64,000 nucleotides of DNA from Candidatus Latescibacterota bacterium (lineage in GTDB: Bacteria; Latescibacterota; UBA2968; UBA8231): positions 1,920,001 to 1,984,000 of the forward strand of contig OZ244561.1 in NCBI GenBank assembly GCA_965217585.1, read 5' to 3'. The translations under genes were made by a program, and so were the position numbers. Shown piece after piece: positions 39,556-58,747 of this stretch. Numbering within the stretch: position 1 is the first letter of the stretch; each line of letters opens with the position of its first letter. The notes under the pieces were generated by a model. The model worked only from the letters and a program-made list of their open reading frames with translations. It made no database searches and was not told the DNA's origin.

Positions 39556-39658
39556 CAGGGGTTCAGATGTCTAGTACGATTTATATTCGCGGCTGTCTCC
39601 CTCACTACTCGCCAAATATGAGATAGCATAGTACAATAGAAAATAAAAGGAGGCCATC

Positions 39659-39898: not shown

Positions 39899-39914
39899 AT
39901 CTGGGAAAACACCC

Positions 39915-40073
39915 GTGAAAGCTTGGCGTTTCTATGCCTTCGGCGACATGCGGCTCGACGACATTGAGCTGGCGGCCTGCCCACCCGATCACGTGCTAGT
40001 CGAACCGCTAGTAGTCCAACCCAGCGCGACCGAAGCCCAGCTCGCAGAAGCAGCGCAGACGCTGGGTGGCTAA
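39915..40073 (+). pseudogene. Chimeric fragment: 5' end of the 58748 dehydrogenase fused to the 3' end of the 36872 oxidoreductase
   Basis: 39904-40045 matches 58737-58878; 40046-40084 matches 37933-37971. Confidence 0.88.
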
Positions 40074-40103
40074 TCCCAGCAGAGACTGACAGGCGAGGTA
40101 GAT

Positions 40104-41054
40104 ATGCTGGACGAACTGCGCAAAATCCGCTACGCCCGCTTCCGCCTAGCAATGACCGCAGCTAGCCAATTGCGGTTGCCTCCCTACAAGGGATCCACCT
40201 TTAGGGGAGCCTTTGGCCATACCTTCAAACAGCTAGTCTGTGTTAAGCGGGATCTGGACTGTTCCACCTGTCTGATCAGCGACCGGTGCGTGTATTACTA
40301 TGTCTTCGAGACCCCGTCCAGTGGTGAGGGAGAGAAGGACAGCCGCGGATATACTTTTGCGCCGCATCCTTTTGTGATTGAACCACCCGAGGAAACGCGG
40401 GAAATCTACGAGCCGGGAGCCGAACTGCGGGTCGGACTGGTTTTGGTGGGGCGTGCCTTGGACTACCTACCCTACTTCATCTACGCCTTTGAGGAAATAG
40501 GGCAGCGAGGGTTAGGGGCCGGGCGCGGCAAAACCGCTTTGCAGCGAGTTATCGCCCTCGGTCCTGAGCCTAGCGACGATAGGTGCATCTATCAGACCGG
40601 TACCGGACAACTGGAGTCGGACTATCCGGTCGGCGTTGGTGCTCCTGACATCGCGGCCGTTGGAACGCGGCTGCGGCTGCGGCTGCACACGCCGCTGCGG
40701 CTCAAAAACGAGGGGCGCTATACTCGCCAGCTTGACTTTTCTCTATTGGTGCGATCCTTGTTGCGGCGCGCTTCGGATCTGGCCCGCTTTCACTGCGGGG
40801 CCGAACTGGACCTGGACTACCGGCAGTGGATTAAGCGGGCAGAGGGGGTATCGGCGGTGGCAGCGACACTGCGCTGGCACGACTGGGAGCGGTATTCGCA
40901 GCGGCAGGATCGGAGAATGAAGTTAGGTGGCTTGGTCGGCGAAGTGGAGTTCGCTGGCGAGTGGCAACCCTTCATGCCGCTGTTGCGGCTGGGCGCGGAT
41001 CTGCACGTGGGTAAGGGGACAGGTTTTGGGCTGGGACGCTACGAGATTTTGTAA
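40104..41054 (+). CDS. cas6: CRISPR pre-crRNA endoribonuclease Cas6
   Basis: LPPYKGSTFRGAFG, PHPFV, RYSQRQ...M.LGG..G, HVGKGTGFGLGRY Gly-rich loop. Confidence 0.93.
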   Translation: MLDELRKIRYARFRLAMTAASQLRLPPYKGSTFRGAFGHTFKQLVCVKRDLDCSTCLISDRCVYYYVFETPSSGEGEKDSRGYTFAPHPFVIEPPEETREIYEPGAELRVGLVLVGRALDYLPYFIYAFEEIGQRGLGAGRGKTALQRVIALGPEPSDDRCIYQTGTGQLESDYPVGVGAPDIAAVGTRLRLRLHTPLRLKNEGRYTRQLDFSLLVRSLLRRASDLARFHCGAELDLDYRQWIKRAEGVSAVAATLRWHDWERYSQRQDRRMKLGGLVGEVEFAGEWQPFMPLLRLGADLHVGKGTGFGLGRYEIL

Positions 41055-41071
41055 AGGAGCAGGATGAAGAC

Positions 41072-42775: not shown

Positions 42776-42792
42776 ACGTCGTGTGGGGAGAG

Positions 42793-42965
42793 TGTGCAGA
42801 ATTGCACGCACGCCGTGCAATTCTGCACAGTGGTCTGATATGCTTTGGCGGCAACCGGATAATTCACTGATTTTTAACAACTTAAGAGAGCGCCGTTTGC
42901 CGAGTTAGGCCGAAAATCGCAAAAAGTGCCCGAACTATTGCCATAACAGCGTGCAGAATTGCACG
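42793..42965. promoter_or_regulatory. Putative enhancer (UAS) sites, GTGCAGAATTGCAC x3
   Basis: Copies at 42794-42807, 42815-42828 (inverted; 16-bp arms, 5-nt loop) and 42951-42964. Confidence 0.75.
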
Positions 42966-43053
42966 ACTGGACATGTTGTCGTCCATCTCCTGTTTTCAAA
43001 AAATATTACATAACCTATTGTTTTTATTTATTTTTTGAGAATAACAGAAGGTT

Positions 43054-43070
43054 TGGCACGCAGATTGCAT
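43054..43070 (+). promoter_or_regulatory. Sigma54 (-24/-12) promoter
   Basis: TGGCACG-CAGA-TTGCAT with consensus spacing; preceded by an AT-rich IHF-like tract (TAACCTATTGTTT near 43010); AGGAGG RBS follows. Confidence 0.9.
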
Positions 43071-43101
43071 ATAAAGAACCAAACCTTAAAGGAGGAACAG
43101 C

Positions 43102-43452
43102 ATGAACACTATAATCAATCAAGGGGATGAGCAATATTATTCTCAGGGCGGCTTCTGGAATAAGTTGCGCAACTTCGCGCGTACCGCGGGTCGGGAAGTC
43201 GTCGAGAATGCCCTGTCGCTCTACTACACCGCACAGGCCCCTGAAACACCGGCCTGGGCCAAGACGATTATCTATGGGGTACTGGGATACTTCATTCTGC
43301 CGGTCGATGCAATTCCCGACCTAATCCCAGTCGTCGGCTTCAGCGACGATTTGGCTGCGTTGGTCGCTGCACTCGCTACCGTGGGGATCCATGTGACGCC
43401 TGAGATTAAAAACCGCGCCAAGAAGAAAGCAGCCGAGTGGTTTGGAGATTAA
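43102..43452 (+). CDS. YkvA/DUF1232 family membrane protein
   Basis: FW.KL..FA..AG, TP.WAK..I.G.LGYFI.P.DAIPD.IP.VG.SDD. Confidence 0.88.
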   Translation: MNTIINQGDEQYYSQGGFWNKLRNFARTAGREVVENALSLYYTAQAPETPAWAKTIIYGVLGYFILPVDAIPDLIPVVGFSDDLAALVAALATVGIHVTPEIKNRAKKKAAEWFGD

Positions 43453-43525
43453 TGGATAATCACATCCGAGTCGAGCCGACGGCAAAGGCCGTCTCCGCCG
43501 CGATGTTAGAAGGGGAGTATCTATA

Positions 43526-44155
43526 ATGAACAGAGAATTATCAGAAGGCAAGATGGTGCCCGTATTGAATTGGGCTTATGATAAAGCGGTCAATGGTGTT
43601 GCCGGCTTAGATTCTGCCGGGGAGCTTGCAGAGAGCTATATGAGCAGGGGAGGCTCACGAGTCGATCAAGTCAATTCACTTATACGGTGGCAGAATACTA
43701 AGGCTGGAACCTCCGGCTTCGTGACTGGGTTCGGTGGCTTATTAACTATGCCGGTCACAGTCCCTGCTAGTATTTCGAGCGTACTGTACATCCAAGTGAG
43801 AATGATTGCTGCTATTGCGCATATAGGTAGTCATGACTTAACAGATGATCGTGTTAAAACACTTGTGTATGTCTGCTTAACGGGAAACGCGGCCAGAGAG
43901 GTTCTCAAAGACGTTGGGGTTGTTATTGGTACAAAGCTTACAACAAACGCAATTAAGCGTATTTCAGGGAGAACACTAGCTGCAATCAATCGAAAAGTAG
44001 GATTTCGGTTGTTTACTAAGTTTGGCGAAAAAGGTGCTATCAATTTAGGTAAAGCAGTCCCGTTTGTAGGTGCGGTAATAGGAGCTACTGTTGACTCTGT
44101 CTCCACAAATACTATCGGAAATGTTGCGAGGGACACGTTTGTCACCTTGAAATGA
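43526..44155 (+). CDS. EcsC family protein
   Basis: LIRWQ..KAGTSGFVTG.GG...PV, Q.RMIAAIA..G, INRKVGFRL.TKFG.KG.INLGK.VP.VG..IG. Confidence 0.8.
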   Translation: MNRELSEGKMVPVLNWAYDKAVNGVAGLDSAGELAESYMSRGGSRVDQVNSLIRWQNTKAGTSGFVTGFGGLLTMPVTVPASISSVLYIQVRMIAAIAHIGSHDLTDDRVKTLVYVCLTGNAAREVLKDVGVVIGTKLTTNAIKRISGRTLAAINRKVGFRLFTKFGEKGAINLGKAVPFVGAVIGATVDSVSTNTIGNVARDTFVTLK

Positions 44156-44176
44156 GCAATAGAAAAGGAGAATAAA

Positions 44177-46804
44177 ATGGAAACGGGCAAGATCAAAAAG
44201 TGGATCGAGGATAAAGGCTACGGGTTCATTGTGAATGATCTTGAAGAAGATGTCTTCTTTCACATCAGCGGCAGTCAAGCCTTAAAGGGCAAGGAAGAAT
44301 CTCTGGTCGAGGGAGCAGTCGTTGTTTTCGACAAACGGCCCTCCCCGAGACACGCAGGCCGGTACGAGGCAAAGAATGTCCGTTTACAAGACCACATAGT
44401 TTCTTCCACAGCGCAAGAAGCCGTAGAGTCCAGTCCGTCAAGCGCCGAAACACACGACCACTTTCACAATCCATATACCTTCGTCCCTTCTCCGCCGCGT
44501 CAGGATGCAATAAAAACTGGCGGATTTGCAGGCGATTTTGATCCGTTGGAATGTGGCCGGGGCCTCAGCCATGCATCTCTAAAGCCTGACCTGTGGACAG
44601 GGTACCTGCCCATCAAGCTGACCACCGTCACACCCTTGGTATTGCCCAAAACTGATGGCAAAGAACGTTCGTCAACTGAGCACCATACTTATGATGTACT
44701 CAACCATTTGCCGGAGTCGTCCGTGCGCGGCATGCTGCGCAGCACATACGAGGTAGTGACAAACTCGCGCTATAGTTGTTTTAGGAACGACGACCGACTG
44801 GCCTATCGCATGGAAACTAGGGAAGCTCTGAAGCTCATTCCAGCGGTTATCGAAAATGGCAAAGGGGCTGGGGAATTGGTGGCGCGTTTGTATACTGGAA
44901 CCAGCCATGCCACGGCTCAAAAGCCTAATGGACACGGAGAAAAAGGTGCAATGTATGCAGCAATGCTGACACGCTATCACAAGAATTCAAATCTGAATTC
45001 GGAGTGTGTAGGGGGGTATGATCCTCGGACTGGGGACGAAGTTTGGGCGGAGATCGAGCTTTGTCAGCACCGGCGAGGCTACCGGTTCTGGAAGGCAATC
45101 AGAGTTTGGCCAAAGAGCGGGCATCCCAAAGAACCATCGACTACAGGAAAAATCGTCGAAGGGCGCGTTTTGGTCACCAATCAAAACATGGGCAACAAAC
45201 ATGATGAGCGGATTTTCTTCAATCCCAAACCAGATACGTTTGAAGTGACCGACCATCTCAAAGAGTCTTGGCGCATGCGCATCAAAAGCTATAGGGAAGC
45301 ACACCCTGAGAACGATATTTTTAAGCGGCCACGAGGTGCGAAGCCCTGGGGGAAAATCGGCAATAACCCTGGAGAAACAGCATGGTCGCCGCATTTATAT
45401 CAGGATGGTAAACACCGGGACCGCTGGGGCAGAAACACACATGACGCAATGGAATTGCAAGCGGGAGATCTGGTGTATGCCCGCGGCAAATTCGATACAA
45501 AGGGGAATATCACGGATATTGAAGATCTTTTCCCAGTCATGATCTCCCGTGAGTTGTATGACAATAGCCCCAAAGACCTTCTCGATTCCTCACTAAACGA
45601 TTCCTTACTAAAGCCAGCGAGTAAGAGAAGTGAGTTGTCTCCCGCGGATCGTCTATTCGGGTGGGTACCTCAGAAATCCGGTAGCGACCAAGGCTACAGG
45701 GGTCGCATACGAGTCGTCTGTGAGGATGGCGCACGACCAGAAATCATCGAGGACTTTGCTGGTAAGTCCTTGCCCCTTGCTATCCTGGGACAACCGAAAC
45801 CCGCACAGGGCCGTTTTTATGTAGCCAAGGATGATCAAGGCAGGCCGCAAGAAGATGGCCTTGACAAGAAACAGGCAGGCTATAGTAAAGGCAAGGGCCT
45901 ACGAGGCCGTAAGCAGTACTGGCATCATAAAGGACTGGAAGCCGATAAGGCATCGGACTATTGGAAGCCGTCAGTTGAGGACCGAACACAGCAACAAAGT
46001 AATGGTCGGCACCAAGAATATCGCCGTCCTGATGGAGAGTCTCAAACCGATCCTCAAAATCGCAGCATTCGAGGGTGGATCAAGCCCAATACCGTTTTTA
46101 AGGTATCCCTGTATGTGCAAAATCTGCAAACTGAAGAGATTGGCGCATTGCTTTGGCTACTGTCGCTTCCCGAAGGCCATTATTTTCGGCTAGGCTACGG
46201 CAAGCCATTGGGTTTTGGGAGTGTGAGGATGGAAGTAGATGAGGAGCGATGCGTAAATGGGGGTCTGCCACTTGGCACCGGAGAAGAGTGGAAAAACTAC
46301 TATGCGGCTTTCGATGCATCCTCCCCGGCAACGCTGGATGAAGGGCAACGAAACAACTGTATTCAGAAATTTAAGGCCAGTATGGTGACCGCGTACAAGC
46401 CTCTTCCAGCTAATGACGAAGCCATCAATAGGAGTGAAGGCCAGGAAGCATCTGATAAGTCCCACCGAATTACGTCCTTTGCTGATCTCAAACATGTTCC
46501 TATCAAGACAATTCCGACCACTCCAGAAGATCGGAAGAAGTCCGAGGAACAGCGCTTTGACGAATTGCCTTTTATCAGTGGATTTCTGCAAGTCCTAAGC
46601 GGTCCGAAAAATGACGCACCCATTCACTATCCACGTCTGGAACGCAAACCGAACCCAGAGGGTGAGAATTTCAAATGGTTTGTCGATAATGAGAAAGGGC
46701 AAGGTAAGAAGGTCACGCTTCCAGCGGCTACGGACGAGAAGGGGTTACCTTATCAGCCATCAAGCGGTGCCGTTCACAGTTCACGCACAAAGAGGAGACG
46801 ATAA
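44177..46804 (+). CDS. Cold-shock domain fused to large Cas7-with-insertion RAMP (TIGR03986-like)
   Basis: METGKIKKW..DKGYGFI...VFFHIS (RNP1/RNP2); FHNPYTFVP, SSVRGMLRS.YE, SPADRLFGWV, LRGRKQYWH, LGYGKPLGFGSV. Confidence 0.88.
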   Translation: METGKIKKWIEDKGYGFIVNDLEEDVFFHISGSQALKGKEESLVEGAVVVFDKRPSPRHAGRYEAKNVRLQDHIVSSTAQEAVESSPSSAETHDHFHNPYTFVPSPPRQDAIKTGGFAGDFDPLECGRGLSHASLKPDLWTGYLPIKLTTVTPLVLPKTDGKERSSTEHHTYDVLNHLPESSVRGMLRSTYEVVTNSRYSCFRNDDRLAYRMETREALKLIPAVIENGKGAGELVARLYTGTSHATAQKPNGHGEKGAMYAAMLTRYHKNSNLNSECVGGYDPRTGDEVWAEIELCQHRRGYRFWKAIRVWPKSGHPKEPSTTGKIVEGRVLVTNQNMGNKHDERIFFNPKPDTFEVTDHLKESWRMRIKSYREAHPENDIFKRPRGAKPWGKIGNNPGETAWSPHLYQDGKHRDRWGRNTHDAMELQAGDLVYARGKFDTKGNITDIEDLFPVMISRELYDNSPKDLLDSSLNDSLLKPASKRSELSPADRLFGWVPQKSGSDQGYRGRIRVVCEDGARPEIIEDFAGKSLPLAILGQPKPAQGRFYVAKDDQGRPQEDGLDKKQAGYSKGKGLRGRKQYWHHKGLEADKASDYWKPSVEDRTQQQSNGRHQEYRRPDGESQTDPQNRSIRGWIKPNTVFKVSLYVQNLQTEEIGALLWLLSLPEGHYFRLGYGKPLGFGSVRMEVDEERCVNGGLPLGTGEEWKNYYAAFDASSPATLDEGQRNNCIQKFKASMVTAYKPLPANDEAINRSEGQEASDKSHRITSFADLKHVPIKTIPTTPEDRKKSEEQRFDELPFISGFLQVLSGPKNDAPIHYPRLERKPNPEGENFKWFVDNEKGQGKKVTLPAATDEKGLPYQPSSGAVHSSRTKRRR

Positions 46805-46806
46805 CC

Positions 46807-47898
46807 ATGGGAACACAACTCATTCTTACAATTGGAACTAATCCACTACCAGTGTGGGTGGCGTGGCATCATTTGAAAGAGAAACTGCAAGAACCGATCA
46901 AGGTTCGATTTGTGCATACTGCAGGCACGGTGGACGAAACAGACCGACTACAGAAGTATTGTCAAGGTGCGTCTCTCCTTGATCCCATTCAAACGTCGGC
47001 GGGTAATCCAGGGACTGTACGCGGTGATATCAGGCATATATTAAAAGATTTATCAGCTGAGACAACTGATCTTCACGTCCACTACACCGGCGGCACTAAG
47101 GTGATGGGCGTTGAAACGGTTTCCGCTATTGAAGCCCACCTACGAGCGGAGCAGAACATTCGCCTACAAACCTCCTATCTTGATCCACGTGGCGCATCAG
47201 GCCCGATTATCGTAAGTCGGAGCGGTCCTCTCGTAGAGGATACCCGTCGGGGAATTGATCCTTGTCTTAGTCGCATCGCCGAACTCGACGGCTTTACGAT
47301 TGGACCATTTGAATACCGATACTGGGATAGCTCAATTAAAGACCATAAGGTGCAAGAATGCTCGGCCCCCGGAACACCTAGTCAAGATCAACTGGACGAG
47401 GGCCGAGAGGCACTTAAGGCCAGACGTATCGATGATCCCGATCTTCTCGAGTACGGCGCGTATGCTGCCTTTGAGGAAGCTCTGGAGAGAATTTCCGCGA
47501 GCAATTTGGATCGAAAAAACTATGAAATTTTTCACAGAGTGTACGTCCGGCGGGCTGGGAAAAAAGACCCGAATGTTAAGCCTTTTGAACTCGATGTAGT
47601 TGCGGTGCTGGGGTATCAAATTGTCGTTGTTTCGTGTACCGTTGATTCTGTTCACGACCGAATCAAACAAAAAGGTATGGAGGCTATTCTACGGGCACGG
47701 CAACTCGGTGGTGATGAAGCGCGGGCCATTGTTTTTTGTAGCGCTCACCCGAATGACGCTAAACTCATCGAAGATGAGCTAATGGATGAAATGGGTAGTG
47801 CAAGTGAGCCCCTGCAAGTCTGGGGACGTAATAAGAAGAGAGGGCTACCCGGTGAGTTTTATCGATACCTGCGCAATGACCTGCATTGGATGTTATAA
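46807..47898 (+). CDS. CARF plus PD-(D/E)XK nuclease effector (Can2/Card1-like)
   Basis: LTIGTNPLP, HYTGGTKVM, FELDVVAVLGYQIVVVSCT, EAILRARQLGGDEAR. Confidence 0.8.
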   Translation: MGTQLILTIGTNPLPVWVAWHHLKEKLQEPIKVRFVHTAGTVDETDRLQKYCQGASLLDPIQTSAGNPGTVRGDIRHILKDLSAETTDLHVHYTGGTKVMGVETVSAIEAHLRAEQNIRLQTSYLDPRGASGPIIVSRSGPLVEDTRRGIDPCLSRIAELDGFTIGPFEYRYWDSSIKDHKVQECSAPGTPSQDQLDEGREALKARRIDDPDLLEYGAYAAFEEALERISASNLDRKNYEIFHRVYVRRAGKKDPNVKPFELDVVAVLGYQIVVVSCTVDSVHDRIKQKGMEAILRARQLGGDEARAIVFCSAHPNDAKLIEDELMDEMGSASEPLQVWGRNKKRGLPGEFYRYLRNDLHWML

Positions 47899-47913
47899 GA
47901 TAAGGATATAATT

Positions 47914-49557
47914 ATGTCAACTTCTCTTTATACTGGTCAATGTATCGCGGTCTTCGGTACTGCGAGTCTTCAGCGATACATCTTTCAGAGCAATCGCCTG
48001 AAAGAGAACCTCGGCGCGTCCTATCTGGTAAAATACTGGCTCGAAGATGGCTTGCCTGAGTCTATAAAGCAAGCTGGCCACACAATTGATACGACCACAT
48101 GGGATACGTACCAAGAGAATCCTTCGATGTCTCCACCTGAAAAGCCGGTAGACATGACGAAAAGTGCTAATCTCATCTATGTCGGTGGGGGGAATGCCGC
48201 GCTGTTATGCAAAACCCAAGAGATTGCTAAAGATGCTGTCAAATCATGGAGCTGCGAGCTACTCAAAAAAGCTCCTGGACTCCGGGTGGCCGTTGGATAT
48301 GCAGATGTTGAGAACTCTCTGGCTGTGGCATATAGAGACGCATTGGATGATCTCGCCAGTTGCGAGGAGGCACTGCCTTTTGGAGACACCCTGTACGGCT
48401 TACCCGTTGTTCGCACCTGTACCACGACGGGACTCCCAGCAAGCGTGCCCAGCGAGGAAAACAATGCGGAGTGGATATCACTGTCTGCGATGAGCAAGCG
48501 GAATCAAGTCGGCTCCGAACGCGAGCCCGGTGTTGCCCAAAAGGATATCAGGCGGAAATTCAAACCAGTTCTAAAAGAAGACCAATACTTTGCCATAGAA
48601 CTTAACAAATTAGGAGGCCGTAAAGGAGAATCGCATATCGCTGTAGTACATGCCGACGGCAATGGAATGGGCAAACATCTCATAGATGTAGTAAACAGTG
48701 CAGGAGAAGATGCGGACTTCCTCCATCACATCCGGGCGTTTTCTGCCTCTGTGTCGCTTCTGTCCCAGAATGCCCTAAAGGAGACTTTGCAATATCTACG
48801 AGAAGCTTTGCCGAGTCTGAAAGATGATTTGTCGCTGGAAGATGAAAAAATCTTTCCTCTGCGTCCCATCGTGTATGGCGGCGATGATTTGACGTTTGTC
48901 TGCGATGGTCGCTTGGGGCTCGATCTGGCTGCCTTCTATTTGAAGGAGTTTTCCAAGGGCACGATCAATGTCTGCGGTGAGGACAAGCCCGTTGATGCAT
49001 GTGCTGGGGTAGCCATTGTGCCTACGAAATTTCCCTTTGCTCGCGCGTATCATTTTGCCGAAGAACTATGCGGATTGACCAAGTCACACCTTCGCCAAGA
49101 GAATTTAACCGGCAGTTGGCTGGATTTTCAGATCATTCAGGAAGGTTCCACTCGTTCCGTTTCCGCACTCAGAGCCACACAGTATCGCAGCCTCGAAGGG
49201 CAAACGCTCCATCAGCGCCCGTATCAGGTGCCAGAAAAATGGGACGATTTTGTCTCGATTTTGAATAAATTCCAATCCCAACAATGGCCCCGCAGCCGCG
49301 CCAAAGGTCTTTTGCAGGCTCTAACTCAAGGACCGGTCGCAACCCAACGATTTATTGAAGGCACACAATGGCGTGATATAAATTTGCCATACATAGAGGG
49401 CTTGGATGCGAATGCACAAAAAATGGGTTGGACGGGTGGGGATTCCTCGAATAGCAGCACGCCGTATTTCGACCCGCTCGAAGCACTTGATTTCTATTTA
49501 GAAGTGAAGCCAGCAACAGATGGTGAGAGTGCAGGGAAGGAGATAACGAATGACTGA
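47914..49557 (+). CDS. cas10: Cas10, type III-D form (no HD domain, intact GGDD)
   Basis: QRYIFQSNRLKENLGAS, YVGGGNA, VVHADGNGMG, VYGGDDLTFV, PF..AY..AE.L. Confidence 0.93.
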   Translation: MSTSLYTGQCIAVFGTASLQRYIFQSNRLKENLGASYLVKYWLEDGLPESIKQAGHTIDTTTWDTYQENPSMSPPEKPVDMTKSANLIYVGGGNAALLCKTQEIAKDAVKSWSCELLKKAPGLRVAVGYADVENSLAVAYRDALDDLASCEEALPFGDTLYGLPVVRTCTTTGLPASVPSEENNAEWISLSAMSKRNQVGSEREPGVAQKDIRRKFKPVLKEDQYFAIELNKLGGRKGESHIAVVHADGNGMGKHLIDVVNSAGEDADFLHHIRAFSASVSLLSQNALKETLQYLREALPSLKDDLSLEDEKIFPLRPIVYGGDDLTFVCDGRLGLDLAAFYLKEFSKGTINVCGEDKPVDACAGVAIVPTKFPFARAYHFAEELCGLTKSHLRQENLTGSWLDFQIIQEGSTRSVSALRATQYRSLEGQTLHQRPYQVPEKWDDFVSILNKFQSQQWPRSRAKGLLQALTQGPVATQRFIEGTQWRDINLPYIEGLDANAQKMGWTGGDSSNSSTPYFDPLEALDFYLEVKPATDGESAGKEITND

Positions 49558-51955
49558 GTATGTTTTACAGATCAAGCTGCAATCGCCGCTAACCTCTGCC
49601 GCTGGTGAGGGACGTGTAGGTGTGGTTGACCGCGACGTAGCCTTTGACGATCTGGGGTTACCCATTCTTCCCGGTAGGCGACTCAAAGGGCTGTGGCGCG
49701 AAGCCTATCGCGATGTTGCCGATGCGTGGGAGTTGTGCGGTGAATCTCCAATACCAGTAGAGCTTATTTTCGGCAAGTCAGGACAGAGATCCGGCGCTGG
49801 GGATGCTTGCATGTTTATTGCCAATGCAGAGTTGCAAGAGACGCCGTCTTTAAGAGAATGGTTGAAATATTTACAAAATAAAAAACAACTTCATCCTGAC
49901 GATGTGGTGCAACACTTTGCCACTGTGCGCGCCCAGACCGCAATCGACCGCAGGACTGGCGCAGCACTTAAGAATACGCTCCGCCTCACCCGTACCTTAA
50001 AAGCTGGCCTAGTATTTCAGGCACGAGTGCGCTTCTTTGAGTCTCCAGACGACGTGCTGCTCAATGCTCTATCTCTGGGGACTGCGGCTCTGCAACACAT
50101 GGGAACGGCGCGAACCCGCGGTCTCGGAAAGATCTCCTGTCGTTTGCTGGCACACGATGAGAACGGGCAATGCCGAGACTTGACAGACGAAGCCCTGAGC
50201 AACGACGCGCTTCCATCAATTGCCGAAACCAATCTGGCGCAACAAGCACAAACTTCAAAGGGGCAGACGACTACTGCACCCCCCTCAAGTCACCTGGTTC
50301 CCACGCATTTGTTGCGCTATCGGATCACGTTGACAACTCCAGTAGTTATCCCAATGGCGGATGGTGACCCGAATACGGTTATGACCCGGCAGGACGTACC
50401 CGGAAGCAATATATGGGGAGCTGCTGCTTGGCACTATCTTAGCCAATCGAATCGCACTCCTGAAGATGATGAGTTTCGCCACGCCTTCCTCGATGGAGGC
50501 TTGCGGTTCTTGACTGCTTACTTGGAAGCGGACGACTCCGAGGCATCCAATGAAATACCGCAACGCATGATCCCCATTCCCCACTCCATCCGCAAGTTCA
50601 AGGAGGGCGAAGAACCGGTTGATTTTGTGGAACCATCGCCAAGAGGGGAGCCAACAAAGCGCCTCGACCGCAGCTATGCCAGAATCAGTGAAGGGAGTTT
50701 GGAGACGCAGGCTGTCAAGACGGAGTTGAACTACCACCACGCCCGTGCCAAAAACCGCCGCATAGGCCGTGCTCTTGGTGCGGAGGCCACAGAAGGCGCA
50801 GATAGCGGTGCCCTCTTTACGTATGAAGCTATCCAGGCTGGACAGTCGTTTCAAGGTGCTGTCCTAGGTTCTGAGGACGATCTGAAAAATCTGAAAAATT
50901 GGTTACAAGAGGGAGAACTAAGAATCGGAAGGTCTCGCAGCGCGCAGTACGGCGAGGCGGAATTTGAATGGCTTGATGATGCGCCACAGGAATTGAATGG
51001 GCGCGTTGAGTGGGACGGATTCGTTGAGCAGCAGATACATGATGTCCCCGATCCTAGCAACCATCTGATCATTACCACCTTATCCTCTTTGTTGACTGTC
51101 AACGATTACGGACACCCGGACGCGCATTTCCCAAAGGGCGAATTAGCCGAAGCCTTGGGCCTAGAGGCTTCGGAACTAAAACTATGCAGTAGTTATACCC
51201 GCACTGAGGTGATTGGAGGATATAATTCCCATCTGCGCCTGCCTCGGCAGCAATGGCCTGCTATCACCCCCGGTAGTGTTTTTGTGTTTAAGGCTGAGAA
51301 AACTCTCGATCAGGAGTGTCTCTTGAAATTAGAGCACAATGGCCTGGGACTACGTAAGGGAGAGGGGTATGGCCGCATTGCGGTCAATCGACAGGGCAAT
51401 CTCCAGTTGTGGGAAGAAACCCGACTCGACGATCCCGAGAGCCAACATCCTCCCATCGGTCCCGATGCCTCTGAGGTCCCTGAGGCTATTCAAAACATTC
51501 TACTGGATGTGGTGAGATCGCGTTGCCTAGCGGATATGCAACAGCGTGCTATGACCTGCGCTGAGCGGACACAGAAGGTCCCGAGCAATGCCCTTCTCGG
51601 ACGGCTGCGTTTGTTTTTTCAACAAAAGTCTCCTGCCGAAAGTTTGGAGAAGCTACGCGATCCTGCAAAGGAGCAGCTAACGAACTATCAGGTTGACATG
51701 CGTGATGTCGGCCTGCTGAATTTGCCGACCCGAATGACTCTGTATGACTTGTTCAAAAAGGCCTGGACTGAAAAAGAGTCCTTAACTCGGGAATTGATTG
51801 AACGTCGTGTCGAAGATATTGTCGAAGACCGATACGCCGATATGCGCCAAACCATGATTGACAAACTGGTCTCGGATGACAGCGCGAAGATGTGTACAGT
51901 ATTTCTCGATCATCTGCTTACAGCACTGCGCCGTAATAAGTCAAGGGATAAATAA
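49550..51955 (+). CDS. Cas7-Cas5(-Cas11) fusion RAMP (Csx10-like)
   Basis: D..GLPILPGRRLKG, TAIDR.TG, G..RTRGLG; PGS.IWGA, IGRSRSAQYG, PGSVFVF, GLG.R..EGYG; helical C-terminus. Confidence 0.85.
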   Translation: MTEYVLQIKLQSPLTSAAGEGRVGVVDRDVAFDDLGLPILPGRRLKGLWREAYRDVADAWELCGESPIPVELIFGKSGQRSGAGDACMFIANAELQETPSLREWLKYLQNKKQLHPDDVVQHFATVRAQTAIDRRTGAALKNTLRLTRTLKAGLVFQARVRFFESPDDVLLNALSLGTAALQHMGTARTRGLGKISCRLLAHDENGQCRDLTDEALSNDALPSIAETNLAQQAQTSKGQTTTAPPSSHLVPTHLLRYRITLTTPVVIPMADGDPNTVMTRQDVPGSNIWGAAAWHYLSQSNRTPEDDEFRHAFLDGGLRFLTAYLEADDSEASNEIPQRMIPIPHSIRKFKEGEEPVDFVEPSPRGEPTKRLDRSYARISEGSLETQAVKTELNYHHARAKNRRIGRALGAEATEGADSGALFTYEAIQAGQSFQGAVLGSEDDLKNLKNWLQEGELRIGRSRSAQYGEAEFEWLDDAPQELNGRVEWDGFVEQQIHDVPDPSNHLIITTLSSLLTVNDYGHPDAHFPKGELAEALGLEASELKLCSSYTRTEVIGGYNSHLRLPRQQWPAITPGSVFVFKAEKTLDQECLLKLEHNGLGLRKGEGYGRIAVNRQGNLQLWEETRLDDPESQHPPIGPDASEVPEAIQNILLDVVRSRCLADMQQRAMTCAERTQKVPSNALLGRLRLFFQQKSPAESLEKLRDPAKEQLTNYQVDMRDVGLLNLPTRMTLYDLFKKAWTEKESLTRELIERRVEDIVEDRYADMRQTMIDKLVSDDSAKMCTVFLDHLLTALRRNKSRDK

Positions 51956-51966
51956 GGACTAATAGC

Positions 51967-53456
51967 ATGGCAAATGTGAAGACAGAAACATCTGAAGCTA
52001 AGGATGCCATTGTGCGCCGTCTATATGCTCAAGGCCGATGGAAGCTGGACAGTGTAGCACACTTTGGTGGCGACGAAACCGGCATAGCGGATATGTGCCT
52101 CCTGCGGGATGCAGATGATAGTCCCTTTATTCCGGCCGCATCTATCGCTGGCGCGGCGCGGAGTTTTCTGGCCCAGCAGAGTTTACCCTGGGCAGAGTAT
52201 CGGGCGGACTTACCGAAGAACCGATAGGACTCAAGCGGTTCTTCGGAGGAGGAGATAAACCCGACACAAATAAACCCGGTACTGGTACCATGAGTGCCTT
52301 GATCGTTGCCGATGCTGCCTGTGTCAGTGAGCAGGCAACGACAGCAATCCGCGATGGCGTACGCGTGGATGCCTGCTCGGGTTCTGCCGCTGAGGGGAAA
52401 AAATTCGATGTGGAAGTTGTCGAACGCGGGACCGAATTTGAGTTGTGTCTGGAATGCGTTATTCGTGATGGAGACGACAACAGTGAATTGGAAAGGTTGT
52501 TCTTAGCCCTATTGCATGGGTTCCAAGCAGGCGATATCCGATTGGGCGCACGTACCCGCCGGGGCTATGGACGCGGCAAGGTCGCGTCCTGGGAGATACG
52601 CAATTTGCAGATGAACGATCCAGAGGATGTCATGGCCTGGCTACGCGATAGGGTCTGGTGTCGTCCCGCGAGTAATTTGACGCCCCATCCATTGCCATCC
52701 GACCAACGACAATACTTTCGCCTTGAAGCGGATTTTATCCTGCGAACATCCCTGTTAATCCGCAGTTCACCCTCTGATCCAGAAGCTCCAGACATGGTTC
52801 ATCTACACTCTGCTGGAGAGCCTGTCGTCCCCGGCACATCCTTTGCCGGTGCATTCCGACATCGTGCTTCTCTGATCGCGGACACGATTGATTGGCCCAA
52901 GGACGCGGTGAGTGAACTATTCGGCCCTGTCCATGAAAAAGAAGCCAAAGATTCGCAAGAAGGTTTGTGGGCAAGCCGGGTATGGATTGAGGAACGTCTG
53001 GTGAAAAATGTGGAATCGCGGTGGCAGAATCGCGTTGCCATTGATCGGTTTACCGGGGGCAGCTTGCAGAGTGCCTTGTTTAACGAAAAACCGGTTTTCC
53101 CGCAAGAATCTACGTCGCACCTCAAGTTAAGACTGACGTTAGAAGAGCCGGACGACGCGGAAATCGGCTTGTTGTTCTTAACCCTGCGCGACTTCTGGCA
53201 TGGACATGCTGCCCTAGGCGGAGAAACGAGCAACGGACGCGGCACTCTCCAAGGCGTCAAAGCTGGGTTGCAACTGAAGCGGCGCGAATCGTCAGAGGCT
53301 GAGTGGGAGTTTTCGCAGGTTGACAGCGGCATGACTCTTGTCGGATGTAGTGGTGATGCTTCATTCCTCAAATGTTGTGTCGAAAAAGCCCAATCCCCTC
53401 CTGATCGTCCCGATGGATCACGGCGACCCGAAGAAAAGAGGCCCACCGATGCCTAA
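51967..53456 (+). pseudogene. Cas7-Cas7 tandem RAMP, interrupted by an apparent 1-nt frameshift near 52170-52224
   Basis: Frame 1 gives HFGG...D..LLRD...PFIPAAS.AGA.R then TAG 52225. Frame 3 continues EEPIGLKRFFG...MSALIVAD..RDGV..D, G.RTRRGYG and a second Cas7 (PGTS.AGA, AIDRFTGG). Confidence 0.8.
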
Positions 53457-54009
53457 CGAAACGCATATAGAACTCAGTGAAGCCTTGATCTGTTCACATC
53501 TGTCCCATGTGACTACTGATCCAACGGCGTGGATCTTGTTACAGGAGCCCGGCTTTATCGGCTTTGGTGTGGTGCAATCGGATAAAATCTACTGGCCTCC
53601 AGACGTGCAACCGGATTGGGCACGGGTCAGCGACCTTCGTTTATTCGGCGAGGATGGCGAATGGCATGTCTGGCCTCATTGGGATGGAACTTGGCAGAGC
53701 CGTAGGCTGGAATTGCAAAAATTGACCGATACTCTGACGGAGCACCATGCCTTGTGGGGGACCCAAGTGGAAGAACCCGGACCACCGCCTTGGATAAAGT
53801 TGACAGAAGATCGCGGGGCGGAGATTTGGCTGCCGCTGGCAGAATTGGAATTGACAAAAGGGGACTTGCCGCTGCGCCTAGAACTCAAACAGGTGATCGA
53901 CTATGATGACAAAAGCGGCCTAGCTGGTATCGTCGATGCCGGCTTGGTGGCTCTGGTTCGCAGAAGTGGTGAAAAGATAGGAATACCTAGGGCGGTTGCC
54001 CAAAGCTAA
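53449..54009 (+). CDS. csx19: Csx19-like type III-D subunit
   Basis: DLRLFG..GEWHVW, LWGT, IDYD..G; position after cas7-cas7; ATG overlaps the previous stop. Confidence 0.7.
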   Translation: MPNETHIELSEALICSHLSHVTTDPTAWILLQEPGFIGFGVVQSDKIYWPPDVQPDWARVSDLRLFGEDGEWHVWPHWDGTWQSRRLELQKLTDTLTEHHALWGTQVEEPGPPPWIKLTEDRGAEIWLPLAELELTKGDLPLRLELKQVIDYDDKSGLAGIVDAGLVALVRRSGEKIGIPRAVAQS

Positions 54010-54012
54010 TTC

Positions 54013-55044
54013 ATGCCTACCCTGTACGTCACAGAACCCAGATCGGTCGTCCGGCGTTCGGTCGGCTCCGTCGTGGTAACGCTCAACGAAGACCCCGACG
54101 GGCCGGGGCCGCTGCCCGAACGCCAGCGACGCTTGCTCGAAGTCGAGCCGCATCGGCTGGAACTGATCGCCTTGGTAGGTCGCGTTCACATTACCGCCGA
54201 TGCGCTCCAACTCTGCTTGGAGCAGGGCATTGCGGTCGCTTGGTTGCGGGCGAATGGGAACTTTATGGGCCGCCTTGTGCCGGAGTTGTCGCGCACGGCA
54301 GATCTGCGGTTGGCGCAATTTCGCATGGCCGACGACGAGCCGCAGGCGCTTGCACTGGCTCAGACCTTTGTCGCAGCCAAGCTCCACAATGCGGTTGGTC
54401 TGCTAACGGCTTTGCGATCCAACCGCCGCGCTCAACCCGCTTTGGGGCGGGCCATCGGCGAACTCAAGGCCATGGCCGATACCGTATCGAAAGCGACTAG
54501 CCGGGAGGTGCTGCTGGGCTTTGAGGGTGATGCGGCCCGCCGCTACTTTGCTGGGCTACGGCTCGGTTTCACTGGGGCGATTGGCTTTGCCGGCCGCGCT
54601 CGTCGGCCACCGCCGGACCCGGCCAATGCCTTGCTGTCGTTTGGCTATGTGTTGCTGGCTAATGTCTTAGCGAGTTTGCTGGAGGCCTGCGGCTTCGATC
54701 CCTACCTCGGCTTTATGCACACGGTCCGCTCTGGTCGGCCCAGCTTGGCACTCGACCTTTTGGAGGAATTGCGGCATCCGGTCGTAGATCGCTTTGTGCT
54801 GCGGGTGTGCAATCGGGGACAATTGCGTCCCGAGCATTTTGAGGCTGATGACGAGCGGGGTGGTGTGCGCCTTACGCGTGCGGGGATGCGGATTTTCTTT
54901 CGCACTTGGGAAGCCTTTATGGACGCCCCGCTGCCGGGGATTGGAGAAGAGATGTCACCAGAAGAATTGCTTCGCCGTCAGGTTGATCGTCTAGCGGCCC
55001 ACGTGCGAGATCGTGCACCGTACCAACCCTTGCTTCTACGCTGA
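54013..55044 (+). CDS. cas1: CRISPR-associated integrase Cas1
   Basis: TLYVTE, LLG.EG.AAR.YF, R.RRPP.DPANALLSFGY, DPYLGF.H, SLALDL.EE.R.P.VDR. Confidence 0.95.
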   Translation: MPTLYVTEPRSVVRRSVGSVVVTLNEDPDGPGPLPERQRRLLEVEPHRLELIALVGRVHITADALQLCLEQGIAVAWLRANGNFMGRLVPELSRTADLRLAQFRMADDEPQALALAQTFVAAKLHNAVGLLTALRSNRRAQPALGRAIGELKAMADTVSKATSREVLLGFEGDAARRYFAGLRLGFTGAIGFAGRARRPPPDPANALLSFGYVLLANVLASLLEACGFDPYLGFMHTVRSGRPSLALDLLEELRHPVVDRFVLRVCNRGQLRPEHFEADDERGGVRLTRAGMRIFFRTWEAFMDAPLPGIGEEMSPEELLRRQVDRLAAHVRDRAPYQPLLLR

Positions 55045-55056
55045 GGAGGCTTGCCC

Positions 55057-55344
55057 ATGTCCCGCTTTGTTGTGTGCTACGATATAGCCGACAATAAACG
55101 TCGCTACAAGGTAGCCGCCTGCCTAGATGGGTATGGAGACCGCGTACAGGGCAGCGTATTCGAGTTGCGGGTCGAGCGCATCCTTCTCGATCGGTGCTTA
55201 GCCGAGGTATCCGGCCTGATCGATGCGGCTGAGGACAGTGTGGTCGTCTATCGCCTTTGCGCGGCCTGCGAGAAAGAGCGGGTTTATTTGGGTGTGGGCG
55301 AACAGGTTGCCCATATTGGCGAGGAAGATGTATTTATCGCATGA
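55057..55344 (+). CDS. cas2: CRISPR-associated Cas2
   Basis: VVCYDIAD.KRR.KVA..L..YG.RVQ.SVFE...EDSV..Y.LC..C. Confidence 0.95.
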   Translation: MSRFVVCYDIADNKRRYKVAACLDGYGDRVQGSVFELRVERILLDRCLAEVSGLIDAAEDSVVVYRLCAACEKERVYLGVGEQVAHIGEEDVFIA

Positions 55345-55537
55345 ACAGTCGTAACCTCGGATAGCCCGTCTATTGCTCTGGAGTTACGAATTTGGCTAAC
55401 CGATTGAAATTACTGCAATTCGGCATTACCTGCCGGATCGGAGACAGCCGTGATAGGTGTCGTTGGCCGCTCTGGCCATTGGGTTACGAAAAGTGTTCTC
55501 GCAACCTATTGCAAGACAAGGAGAACTATGGCATACG
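55345..55537 (+). promoter_or_regulatory. CRISPR leader
   Basis: Non-coding, between cas2 and repeat 1; TCGTAACC/GTTACGA motifs; TTGCAA-N17-CATACG abutting the first repeat. Confidence 0.75.
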
Positions 55538-56575
55538 GTTTGGAATATTGACCCGATTACTAGGGGATTGAAACCACAAATAGGCCCATCGCGCTCAAGC
55601 AATTCTTCCCATGTTTGGAATATTGACCCGATTACTAGGGGATTGAAACCATCAATTAACTTTTTCTCTTCTTTTGTAAATTCTTCCATAGTTTGGAATA
55701 TTGACCCGATTACTAGGGGATTGAAACAGGGCGAATAGTGCGATTAGGCCGGCGTAGACCCAGCGTGTTGTTTGGAATATTGACCCGATTACTAGGGGAT
55801 TGAAACCTTTCTCAGAATTCCTTCTAGAACATGAATAGCATTGTTTGGAATATTGACCCGATTACTAGGGGATTGAAACTTCTTGGCCTTGCCGCTCGAA
55901 ACGTCGATACTGATAGGAGTTTGGAATATTGACCCGATTACTAGGGGATTGAAACTGCACTATTGCAGCTGCTTCTTGTGAATCGACGTCGATCTGTTTG
56001 GAATATTGACCCGATTACTAGGGGATTGAAACGCCTACAGACCTGTTGTCGAGCGCCCGCTGCATAGTCGAGGTTTGGAATATTGACCCGATTACTAGGG
56101 GATTGAAACCTTATAGTGGCTGGGCGAGTACGGCCGATTAGCGATGATACGTTTGGAATATTGACCCGATTACTAGGGGATTGAAACCCTGGCGTGGCGT
56201 CGGCTTTGTATTTTTTGAGCACGACCATGTTTGGAATATTGACCCGATTACTAGGGGATTGAAACTTACTGACCTGCCTTACCTTGTGTTCAAATCGACA
56301 AGCGTCGTTTGGAATATTGACCCGATTACTAGGGGATTGAAACCAAAACAGGGTTCGGGCTTAGCCGCCCATCCCGCTAGGAGGTTTGGAATATTGACCC
56401 GATTACTAGGGGATTGAAACCCAATGTCTCCGGCTCCTTGGCGATGGACTGGGCGATCCGGTGTTTGGAATATTGACCCGATTACTAGGGGATTGAAACT
56501 TCGGGGCCGTTTACCACAGCCTAAGCCTAGGGTGGAATGTTTGGAATATTGACCCGATTACTAGGGGATTGAAAC
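55538..56575 (+). CRISPR. CRISPR array: 14 identical 37-bp repeats, 13 spacers of 36-42 nt
   Basis: GTTTGGAATATTGACCCGATTACTAGGGGATTGAAAC at 55538, 55613, 55691, 55770, 55843, 55919, 55996, 56073, 56151, 56229, 56307, 56384, 56463, 56539; ATTGAAAC handle. Confidence 0.99.
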
Positions 56576-56733
56576 ATGTAGGCGAGCGAATCGCACACAT
56601 TGAGGGTGCACTTGACCCTAAACACCGAAGGAAGGAGACTTGAGCGAGCAACAGAAACCCACTCCGATCATGGATTATTTCGAGTAGTCGGCGATCACAA
56701 AAAACCTAAGCTCAAACCGCAGAGAGGATCATC

Positions 56734-57033
56734 ATGAGCTTTGAACAAGCAGTAGACAAAGTGCTGGACCACGAAGGAGGCTTCGTGGATGACCCCGCCG
56801 ACCGGGGTGGCATGACCTTCATGGGCATTTCGCGCCGATGGTTCTCCGACGAGCCCCTCATCGACGAGGATGGCCTTACCGGCCCCGCCACCCGTCGAGC
56901 CATCGAGGCACTGGGCAATCTCGGCGAGGACATGCAAGAGATTCTACCAATTGCGTACCGCTCCCTGCAGGGCGTTCACTTCCTCGACATCTACAAGTCC
57001 AATCGCAGTCAAGTCCGATTCATTCGTGGCTAG
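56734..57033 (+). pseudogene. Internally deleted GH108 lysozyme/endolysin remnant
   Basis: FE.A...VL.HEGGFVDDP.D.GG.T.MGI joined directly to DG..GP.T..A...Q.RF.RG*; TAG stands where the W of GWLNR is expected. Confidence 0.7.
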
Positions 57034-57081
57034 CCACTCAATCGAGCCAGCTAACGCCCACCCTGCTGTGGGCCTCGCAAA

Positions 57082-57170
57082 ACGCAAAGTTGTTCCCGTA
57101 ATCTCTTGCAAGACAAGGAGAACTATGGCATACTTTTTGGACTAGGACCCGATCTCTAGAGAAAGGAGTC
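57082..57170 (+). promoter_or_regulatory. Copy of the CRISPR leader 3' end plus a degenerate repeat, in the promoter/RBS position of the AAA gene
   Basis: 57106-57133 is identical to 55509-55536; 57135-57170 matches the repeat at 25/37 positions with one gap. Confidence 0.8.
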
Positions 57171-57171
57171 C

Positions 57172-58719
57172 ATGAACAAACGCAGATTACCCATCGGCAT
57201 TCAGACCTTCCGCAAAATTCGGGAAGAGGACTACTACTACGTCGATAAAACCGCCTATATCCGGCGGCTGCTCGACGAGGGCACGCACTACTTCCTGTCG
57301 CGCCCCCGGCGCTTCGGCAAAAGCCTATTCTTGGACACGCTCAAGGAAGTGTTCGAAGGCAACGAACCGCTGTTCGCGGGGCTGGACATTCACGACCGCT
57401 GGGATTGGTCGGTGCGTCATCCGGTGCTGCGGCTCGACTTCAGCAGTGGCACCTACCAGGGGCCGGACGACTTGCGGAAGGAAGTGGCGGCGCAATTAAA
57501 CACCTTGGAGGCCGAAGCGGAGATCGTCCCGCGCGACGACGAAGCGCCCGTCCGCTTCCGCCACTTGATGAAGGTGCTGCACGAGCGCAGCGGTCAGCGC
57601 GTTGCGGTGCTGGTTGATGAGTACGACAAGCCGATTCTCGATGCGCTGGAAGTACCGGAGGTCGCCCGCGCCAACCGCGACTTTCTGCGCGGCCTGTATT
57701 CGACCGTGAAGTTTGCCGACGCGCACATCCGCTTCACGTTCATCACCGGGGTGAGCAAGTTTTCCAAGGTCAGCCTGTTTTCCGGCCTCAACAACCTCAC
57801 CGATATCACCTTCGAACCCGAATACTCGGCCCTCTGCGGCTACACCGACGCCGATCTAGACGCCGTGTTCGCCCCGGAGTTGCCCGGCTTAGACCGGGAC
57901 CAGATCCGCGACTGGTACAACGGCTATAGCTGGCTCGGCGACGAGAAGGTGTACAACCCTTTTGACATCCTCCTGCTGTTTCGCCGCCGCCGATTCGCCG
58001 CCTATTGGTTTGAAACCGGCACGCCGACGTTTCTGATCGAAACGCTGTTCAAGCGCCGCGTCAGTTCCCTAGCCCTCGATGAGATGGTCGGCAGCGACGA
58101 ACTACTATCGACTTTTGATGTCGATGACATCGCAACCGAGGCACTGCTGTTCCAGACCGGCTACCTGACGATAACCGACGAGGAAGACGTTGGCGGCGAG
58201 CCCGTCTATCGCTTGGGCTATCCCAACCGGGAGGTGCGGCAGAGCCTGAACCGCAGCATGCTGCGCTACTTGGTGCGGGATTCAACGCGGCAGATGGCCA
58301 ACAGCGTGCAACTCTACCGGCTGCTGGAAGCCAACGACTTCGCCGGGCTAGAGACGCTGTTCCACGCTTTCTTCGCCAGCATCCCCTACGAGTGGTACAC
58401 CAACAACGACATCGCCCGTTACGAGGGTTACTACGCGAGTGTGTTCTACTCCTATTTCGCGGGGCTGGGGCTGAACATCGCGGTGGAGGACAGCAGTAGC
58501 CACGGGCGCTTGGACATGGCGGTTCTGTTCAACGGCAACGTCTATCTGTTCGAGTTCAAGGTGGTCGAGATGGCGTCTGCGGGTGCGGCGATGGCGCAGT
58601 TGCAGGAGCGGCGCTACGCGGACAAGTACCGCGCCTTGGGCCAGCCGATTTACCTGATCGCCGTCGAGTTCAGCAAGGATGCCCGCAACCTAGCGGCGTT
58701 TGAAGTGGAACGACTCTGA
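57172..58719 (+). CDS. AAA-ATPase-like plus PD-(D/E)XK nuclease protein, copy 2
   Basis: Same motifs as 37981..39555; C-terminal part nearly identical at DNA level. Confidence 0.92.
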   Translation: MNKRRLPIGIQTFRKIREEDYYYVDKTAYIRRLLDEGTHYFLSRPRRFGKSLFLDTLKEVFEGNEPLFAGLDIHDRWDWSVRHPVLRLDFSSGTYQGPDDLRKEVAAQLNTLEAEAEIVPRDDEAPVRFRHLMKVLHERSGQRVAVLVDEYDKPILDALEVPEVARANRDFLRGLYSTVKFADAHIRFTFITGVSKFSKVSLFSGLNNLTDITFEPEYSALCGYTDADLDAVFAPELPGLDRDQIRDWYNGYSWLGDEKVYNPFDILLLFRRRRFAAYWFETGTPTFLIETLFKRRVSSLALDEMVGSDELLSTFDVDDIATEALLFQTGYLTITDEEDVGGEPVYRLGYPNREVRQSLNRSMLRYLVRDSTRQMANSVQLYRLLEANDFAGLETLFHAFFASIPYEWYTNNDIARYEGYYASVFYSYFAGLGLNIAVEDSSSHGRLDMAVLFNGNVYLFEFKVVEMASAGAAMAQLQERRYADKYRALGQPIYLIAVEFSKDARNLAAFEVERL

Positions 58720-58747
58720 CAGCAAACCAAAACAAAGGAAAACACCC

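Follow-up and report, generated by a model that had tools for sequence, protein, structure and literature searches.

A CRISPR leader fossil conserved in front of DUF1703 AAA/PD-(D/E)XK genes in a Latescibacterota lineage

The 64,000-nucleotide stretch of DNA analysed here, called the window throughout (positions 1,920,001 to 1,984,000 of contig OZ244561.1, assembly GCA_965217585.1, Candidatus Latescibacterota bacterium; genome G000 below), carries a type III-D CRISPR-Cas locus and, beyond the end of its array, a second copy of the leader-proximal end of the CRISPR leader. This pseudo-leader is followed by a single degenerate repeat, the pseudo-repeat, and then by the start codon of a DUF1703 gene, which encodes a protein with AAA-ATPase-like and PD-(D/E)XK domains. 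We consider that the element is probably the fossil of a second array, in which the repeat has decayed neutrally and the leader part has been kept for a role that is independent of Cas proteins and read by the host, most likely as the promoter of the DUF1703 gene.

The 28 nucleotides that end the true leader occur exactly twice in the window, at 55509-55536 and at 57106-57133, and none of 100 shuffled sequences contained a match to them. Local alignment extends the similarity to 78 nt (55486-55563 versus 57082-57159, interrupted by a 1-nt gap both before and after the core), so that 57082-57159 reproduces ~52 nt from the end of the type III-D leader and the first ~26 nt of the repeat. When the whole 7.3-Mb single-contig genome was searched, one other leader-like copy only was found (84% identity, E 3.5e-15), the remaining strong matches being the 14 repeats of the array. 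Counted by hand, the pseudo-repeat agrees with the repeat (37 nt) in 25 of 37 positions once a single deletion is allowed for; where the 8-nt handle would lie stands AAGGAGTC, and the ATG (57172) follows 2 nt further on. The first-pass annotation, made from the sequence of the window, had described a leader copy standing in the same register before an AAA-PD-(D/E)XK gene, and this description is borne out. As in a functional array, the leader part is homologous to a bona fide leader and adjoins a first repeat; where such an array would continue with at least two repeats and their spacers, the open reading frame here begins at once, and no second repeat was found after the pseudo-repeat in G000.

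The last third of the pseudo-repeat is of less certain descent. Past repeat position ~26 (after CTAG, 57159) it agrees with the repeat at 5 of 11 positions, which is near chance, so that only its first two thirds are demonstrably repeat-derived by alignment. From the other side, the similarity to the 5' flanks of DUF1703 paralogues detected by BLAST starts at ~57168-57172; the string ...GCGTCC-ATG also stands in front of two of these paralogues and ...GCCCCC-ATG in front of a third, so the earlier caveat that the final GTCC is common to the flank of another copy of the gene holds. The AAGGAG at 57163-57168 falls outside both the demonstrable repeat homology and the paralogue homology, and its ancestry is uncertain for that reason. 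The idea that the handle became a ribosome-binding site is thus right as to position; its origin is ambiguous, homology to the handle is not demonstrable, and the Shine-Dalgarno-like motif is intact in only three of the seven species that carry the fusion, the forms being AAGGAG, AAGGCG, AAAGAG and AAGAAG.

Relatives were surveyed in 76 genomes of the family, 31 from the same genus and 45 from other genera. The pseudo-leader and pseudo-repeat are present in 8 of the 31 and in none of the 45, and this conservation goes against the unconserved neutral relic that the first-pass annotation had set against its own proposal. A scan of genome contigs for the core found 9 stretches only, all of this lineage, and two metagenome scans gave no match in one and a single chance match in the other. 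In seven carriers (G000, G002, G012, G013, G014, G021 and G022) the element joins a DUF1703 ATG in the same register, and the carriers have the gene order AAA1 - (variable) - GH108 - element - DUF1703 - ADH - SGL - PhyH, AAA1 being another DUF1703 paralogue. The eighth, G003, has the pseudo-leader with 27 nt of the pseudo-repeat; its DUF1703 gene is deleted and a DUF433 gene lies next. True leaders containing the same block head arrays in G000, G001, G019 and G070 and, in more diverged form, in G066. Compared with the functional leaders of G019 and G070 the pseudo-leader differs at 1 of 42 nt, while the repeat attached to it differs at 12 of 37. A tree of the DUF1703 genes behind the element has two well-supported clades, one with G000, G014, G002, G013 and the second gene of G022, the other with G022, G021 and G012. 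This branching implies that the gene body was exchanged or tandemly duplicated among paralogues and that the junction stayed constant.

In order to compare the two halves of the element, variable sites were counted on the same eight species for all site classes and contrasted by Fisher tests, which are not a phylogenetic rate test. Only 3 of 52 pseudo-leader sites (57082-57133) vary, as against 13 of 38 in the pseudo-repeat, 145 of 369 third-codon positions of ADH and 24 of 55 of GH108. At the synonymous rate of the flanking genes ~20 variable pseudo-leader sites would be expected (p = 2.6e-7 against ADH third positions), and the pseudo-leader also differs from the pseudo-repeat (p = 6.7e-4); the pseudo-repeat does not depart from ADH third positions (p = 0.60), so that the repeat, unlike that of a functional array, gives no sign of selection. 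All three variable pseudo-leader sites (57117, 57118 and 57125) lie between the candidate promoter hexamers described below, the upstream 24 nt (57082-57105) are invariant in every species that has them, and the ADH-SGL intergenic DNA nearby cannot be aligned among carriers. These comparisons argue strongly that the leader part is under purifying selection, and they indicate that the pseudo-repeat decays at the neutral, synonymous rate. Since its decay is common to all carriers, the block must have persisted beside an unusable repeat ever since the ancestor that they share. It would follow that, from the common ancestor of at least eight species onwards, the repeat decayed neutrally and ceased to be a substrate for Cas6 or Cas1-Cas2, and that the 52-nt leader part was held almost invariant, also where the cas genes and the array were lost. 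A part kept in this way even without cas genes or array points to a Cas-independent function read by host machinery, and the leader half is very probably functional in that sense.

Several relics of an array remain around the element in these genomes. In G021 the DUF1703 gene is bracketed by the pseudo-repeat and by a well-preserved solitary repeat that stands between it and ADH, and among carriers G021 alone keeps a further repeat past the DUF1703 gene. In G001 the cas genes, leader and array extend as far as ADH without a break; GH108, the pseudo-leader and a DUF1703 gene are all absent there. The variant GATTGCTAGGG is common to the two terminal degenerate repeats of G001 and the solitary repeat of G021. 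In G002 the first 26 nt of cas6 are joined to one repeat beside AAA1, G012 and G014 each have one repeat between AAA1 and GH108, and comparison of G013 with G000 shows a clean presence or absence of 39558-56639 directly after the AAA1 stop codon. The site is a hot spot at which CRISPR-Cas was lost or replaced several times between DUF1703 paralogues. These junctions are most simply read as descending from an ancestor that had two leader-array units in tandem, the element being the fossil of the second. The interior of that array would have been replaced by a DUF1703 gene, putting the ATG at the place of the first spacer, and deletions between repeats and between DUF1703 paralogues would have come afterwards. 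The first-pass annotation had offered the relic of a second array as an alternative to its functional proposal; the solitary repeats and array-ADH junctions suggest that it was right as an account of origin, and it is no rival to function.

Three further observations concern this site. The place of the locus is taken in G022 by a different type III locus (30-39% amino acid identity). In G021 (L045/L046) a DUF433 and PIN-like pair, toxin-antitoxin-like and named by eye, lies between the solitary repeat and ADH, and in G003 (L050) the same DUF433 gene has its upstream region fused to the pseudo-repeat.

What the leader half does was approached through a promoter model of the genome itself, a weight matrix built from 17 of its 38 tRNA transcription units (consensus TTGAC(A/G)-N17-TAnnTT). 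In these units the motif TTGAC(A/G)-N16-19-TAnnTT lies 4-39 nt (median 15) before the tRNA, with a 17-nt spacer in 13 of 17. The best site in the GH108-DUF1703 intergenic region (57034-57172) is TTGCAA (57106)-N19-TACTTT (57131-57136), which scores 6.6 bits, and both hexamers are unchanged in the pseudo-leaders except for TACTGT in G014. The DUF1703 paralogue p7127k has a strong TTGACC-N17-TACTTT (19.6 bits), with its -10 ending 34 nt before the ATG compared with 35 nt at the element. If used, the candidate would start the mRNA near 57143 and leave the decayed repeat as a 5' untranslated region of ~28 nt, and the leader part would serve as promoter, or as a regulatory site close to one, for any DUF1703 paralogue that happens to follow it. 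A promoter had already been proposed here in the form TTGCAA-N17-CATACT; a promoter reading is plausible, and that particular pair of hexamers is not supported, scoring -2.0 bits in the genome model and 8/12, below threshold, on a generic scan. Another possible promoter, TTGAAA-N17-TACCTG at 55404 (8.7 bits), lies higher up in the true leader and was rejected, as its -10 is kept only in G001. We regard a promoter as the leading reading of the leader half and a regulator-binding site as the runner-up.

A number of points weigh against a promoter. The candidate's 6.6 bits compare with 16.6-23.9 for the tRNA promoters, ~0.11 sites of that score are expected by chance in the intergenic region, its spacer is 19 nt where 13 of the 17 training promoters have 17, and a generic sigma-70 scan of 55300-57300 gives no site. 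The -10 candidate reads TACGGT in the leader of G000 itself and TTCGCT in that of G066, so that the block, if it is an array promoter, is not a universal one; in true arrays, moreover, it would start transcription inside repeat 1, which would be awkward for processing of the first CRISPR RNA (crRNA). The two clades of downstream DUF1703 genes mean that there is no single conserved target gene, and the selection statistics rest on 52 nt and eight related species. RNA data were available as assembled metatranscriptome contigs from four runs of one study, and such contigs cannot show transcript starts. Contigs in X1, X2 and X4 span 57087-57186 without mismatch and continue 5' into unlike sequence that resembles the PIN-like gene of G021, a further junction of that gene, here to 57087, with no start observed. 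No contig in the four runs covers cas2, the leader, the array or GH108, and at contig joints a repeat is connected directly with 58722, which resembles the arrangement of G001. The contigs thus show that related strains are present in the libraries and say nothing on transcription starts or levels.

It is also possible, although unlikely, that the pseudo-leader is selected as an operator bound by a transcription factor or nucleoid protein of the host, or as a transcribed 5' untranslated region or read-through control of DUF1703. The constraint data serve this alternative as well as they serve a promoter, the pseudo-leader contains a 10-nt palindrome (TCTTGCAAGA), and the RNA-library contigs pass through the element from upstream. 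Two further points in its favour are that a bare -35/-10 pair does not require the invariant stretch 57082-57105, and that the positions kept in all 14 leaders and pseudo-leaders (TTGC-AGACA, AGAA and GGCAT) miss the -10 candidate. An RNA structure, however, is not supported, given that none of 25 predicted pairs shows a compensatory change, the predicted hairpin is missing in 5 of the 14 leader or pseudo-leader sequences, and Rfam has no match at the element. Nor is there a candidate binding protein, the upstream activating sequence (UAS) of the CARF-sigma54 activator of the locus being found only at 42794-42964.

Other ways in which the conserved block might be read were tried and set aside. 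A mini open reading frame in the core (Shine-Dalgarno sequence and ATG GCA TAC ...) does not keep its ATG and Shine-Dalgarno sequence in G050, G066 and G014, and a longer one in an alternative frame (56870-57145) is broken by insertions or deletions of 24-26 nt in relatives. A conserved hairpin in the pseudo-leader, or sequestration of the Shine-Dalgarno motif in the pseudo-repeat, was rejected for want of compensatory pairs and with fold z-scores of -0.2 to -0.6. The Rfam scan gave a single sub-threshold match, to sR19, at another place.

That the whole element is a neutral relic, similar among species through recent divergence or a locally reduced mutation rate, seems improbable. The repeat part does decay neutrally, the site is a recombination hot spot full of other relics (repeats standing alone, a stub of cas6 and a fragment of the ADH 5' end), and no transcription start was observed; but three variable sites in place of the ~20 expected at the flanking synonymous rate, the difference from the adjoining pseudo-repeat, the complete turnover of the neighbouring intergenic region and the near-identity to the functional leaders of G019 and G070 beside a far more diverged repeat are all hard to reconcile with drift.

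The preferred reading, a leader part retained for the host, agrees with what remains of the CRISPR system in the carriers. A homologue of this Cas6 was found in none of the five carriers searched (G002, G013, G012, G014 and G021), Cas1 has no match in G021 and is reduced to fragments in G002 and G012, and the cas locus is absent at the site in the same five genomes and in G003. Most carriers have no array that uses this repeat. The true repeat offers only a predicted 3-bp stem, and the pseudo-repeat has lost this stem and its GGGG run; a duplicated pseudo-repeat or inserted spacer was seen in no carrier. The five carriers without a homologue and the lost stem argue against Cas6 as the cause of the constraint, and the state of Cas1 in G021, G002 and G012 and the lack of any duplicated pseudo-repeat argue against spacer integration. 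That five carriers lack this Cas6 and one lacks Cas1 argues that Cas6 processing and co-regulation with the array, which find no support here, are not what is conserved.

Control of leader and pseudo-leader by sigma-54 and the CARF enhancer-binding protein of the locus was rejected as well. The sigma-54 consensus is TGGCAC-N5-TTGCW, with GG at -24 and GC at -12. The -24/-12-like string of the leader, TGGCAT-N5-TTGGA (TGGCATACTTTTTGGA), has two mismatches to it, including the -12 C, and is at chance level, 33 matches at two mismatches or fewer being found where 29.8 were expected. No UAS (GTGCAGAATTGCAC) or sigma-54 promoter was found near either leader. We therefore consider it very improbable that, as the first-pass annotation had it in full, Cas6 binds or cleaves the pseudo-repeat in a 5' untranslated region, gene and array share their regulation and spacers may still be acquired at the site: the 28-nt core is identical in the true leader and pseudo-leader of G000, Cas6, Cas1 and Cas2 genes lie 2-17 kb away and DUF1703 genes stand on both flanks of the island, but the pseudo-repeat varies at the synonymous rate, the Cas proteins and arrays are mostly missing from the other carriers, no spacer has been gained, and the regulator of the locus has its sigma-54 promoter (43054-43069) and UAS elsewhere.

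Table 1. Coordinates of the element, the CRISPR-Cas locus and the flanking genes in the window
Feature	Position	Strand	Basis
DUF1703 paralogue AAA1 (AAA-ATPase_like + PD-(D/E)XK), left island flank	37981..39549	+	82% amino acid identity to the 57172-58719 gene; orthologues left of GH108 in relatives
III-D cas genes, leader, array and 63-nt trailer, 17.08 kb, cleanly absent in G013	39558..56639	+	Boundary alignment with the empty site of G013
Cas6 gene	40104-41054
True CRISPR leader, cas2 stop to first repeat, 193 nt	55345..55537	+	Aligned with leaders of G001, G019 and G070
Leader-proximal block, duplicated at 57082-57133	55486..55536	+	28-mer, local alignment, genome search
CRISPR array, 14 repeats of 37 nt	55538..56576	+	Repeat search
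GH108/PG_binding_3 remnant, 99 amino acids here, ~180 in relatives	56734..57033	+	Pfam, relatives
Pseudo-leader, 52 nt, 3/52 sites variable in 8 species	57082..57133	+	Alignment
Candidate -35 hexamer TTGCAA, same in 8/8 pseudo-leaders	57106..57111	+	Genome promoter model
Candidate -10 hexamer TACTTT, spanning the leader/repeat junction (TACTGT in G014)	57131..57136	+	Promoter model
Pseudo-repeat, 25/37 to repeat, 13/38 sites variable in 8 species, apparently neutral decay	57135..57170	+	Alignment
Shine-Dalgarno-like AAGGAG, former handle place	57163..57168	+	Sequence
DUF1703 gene AAA2	57172..58719	+	AAA-ATPase_like PF09820 1.1e-64 (residues 7-203), PDDEXK_9 PF08011 2.6e-20 (residues 417-507)

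The type III-D locus itself (40104-55344, typed with Pfam and PADLOC) encodes Cas6, a CARF-sigma54-HTH activator, DUF1232 and EcsC proteins, a fused Cas7, a CARF-PD-(D/E)XK protein, Cas10, Cas7-Cas5 (Csx10), a split Cas7, Csx19, Cas1 and Cas2. Its assignment to subtype III-D follows from PADLOC matches to PDLC02057, a model named Cas10d (3.8e-119), Cas7_IIId, Cas5_IIId (7.9e-101) and Csx19 (1.1e-17). The III-D cas7 is split over two open reading frames in different frames, 51967-52227 and 52290-53456, which match positions 3-63 and 81-398 of the Cas7_IIId model, respectively; it is either a frameshifted pseudogene or an assembly error. Between AAA1 and cas6, 39904-40045 duplicates the start of ADH over 142 nt (137/142 identical to 58737-58878), after which 56 nt (40029-40084) resemble the sequence just 5' of AAA1 (49/56), a small open reading frame preceding both. 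This patch of ~0.5 kb is an extra rearrangement in G000, and in G002 cas6 comes directly after AAA1. An internal deletion and a stop codon that comes sooner than in relatives shorten the GH108/PG_binding_3 gene, which seems to be a lysozyme-like gene in decay.

Directly after the gene of the CARF-sigma54-HTH (RtcR/PspF-like) activator there is a textbook sigma-54 promoter, TGGCACGCAGATTGCA, at 43054-43069, and three exact copies of the GTGCAGAATTGCAC site lie at 42794, 42815 (minus strand) and 42951. The promoter is followed by an AAGGAGG ribosome-binding site, the DUF1232 gene (43102) and then EcsC. This arrangement, the obvious target of the activator, looks like a transcriptional output of type III cyclic oligoadenylate signalling onto two membrane-protein genes, and perhaps onto the effector operon behind them. 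In another genus, G050 (L073, match at 1517, minus strand) has a more diverged orphan leader with one degenerate repeat, ~33 nt 5' of a gene that was read as haloacid-dehalogenase-like from its first residues only; this may be an independent leader fossil before a gene.

CRISPR remnants are normally regarded as neutral. The element shares with degenerate terminal repeats, orphan arrays and other remnants a history of array decay and deletion, with solitary repeats left in relatives, and differs from them in having a leader half that appears to be under purifying selection and a fixed-register fusion to a gene start in seven species. CRISPR leaders, for their part, carry the array promoter and integration signals. 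The block here is the leader-proximal ~52 nt of such a leader, barely changed from functional ones, yet it is separated from any array or adaptation genes, and the fact that it has been retained suggests that transcription or binding of a host factor, rather than integration, may be what this part of the leader serves. One could go further and suppose that the last ~52 nt of the leader are a self-contained, host-read module, a promoter or regulator site, that survived the loss of its array and was co-opted for the expression of DUF1703 AAA/PD-(D/E)XK paralogues, an idea that we put forward tentatively and hold with less than even confidence.

Remnants of this kind are usually dismissed as junk, and leaders are hard to dissect because their transcription and integration signals overlap. 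A case in which a CRISPR leader has apparently been recycled as a regulatory element for another gene would, if true, be a natural separation-of-function experiment between the transcription and spacer-integration parts of a type III leader, and would hint at a functional link between DUF1703 genes and the defence island. The frozen leader half and drifting repeat half also provide a cheap comparative handle on the leader positions that the host reads. The practical consequence is small, as the lineage is an uncultured one and the promoter role is a proposal.

The literature searched, from which subscription papers and supplementary data were mostly missing, held no leader fossil reused as a regulatory element and no link of DUF1703 to one, and no PADLOC model matches the DUF1703 gene. 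The DUF1703 family, AAA-ATPase_like (PF09820) plus PDDEXK_9 (PF08011), is described as expanded in a Cardinium symbiont (PMC6387759). The gene downstream of the element has exactly this architecture, the AAA-ATPase_like domain being N-terminal and PDDEXK_9 C-terminal, and its family is expanded in G000 too, with 9 loci of 72-100% amino acid identity.

The closest known counterparts are the standalone repeat-like elements and mini-arrays in cas loci, CreA of CreTA among them, that are described by Shmakov et al. 2023 (doi 10.1101/2023.03.03.530964), who also report that repeat-like sequences are over-represented in the regions flanking type III operons. As described there, such elements usually consist of a spacer able to pair with a promoter and flanked by two repeat-like units, serve together with a Cas effector as crRNA-like guides, and are without the leader region needed for acquisition. 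The element described here resembles them in being a repeat-like sequence outside an array, beside a CRISPR-Cas locus and conserved in related loci. It differs in that there is one decayed repeat-like unit and not two, that the DUF1703 coding sequence stands in the place of the short spacer, and that the cognate Cas effector and Cas6 are wanting, with no homologue of this Cas6 in the five carriers searched and no cas locus at the site in six. In this element it is the leader, and not the repeat, that has been conserved, and it survives without cas genes.

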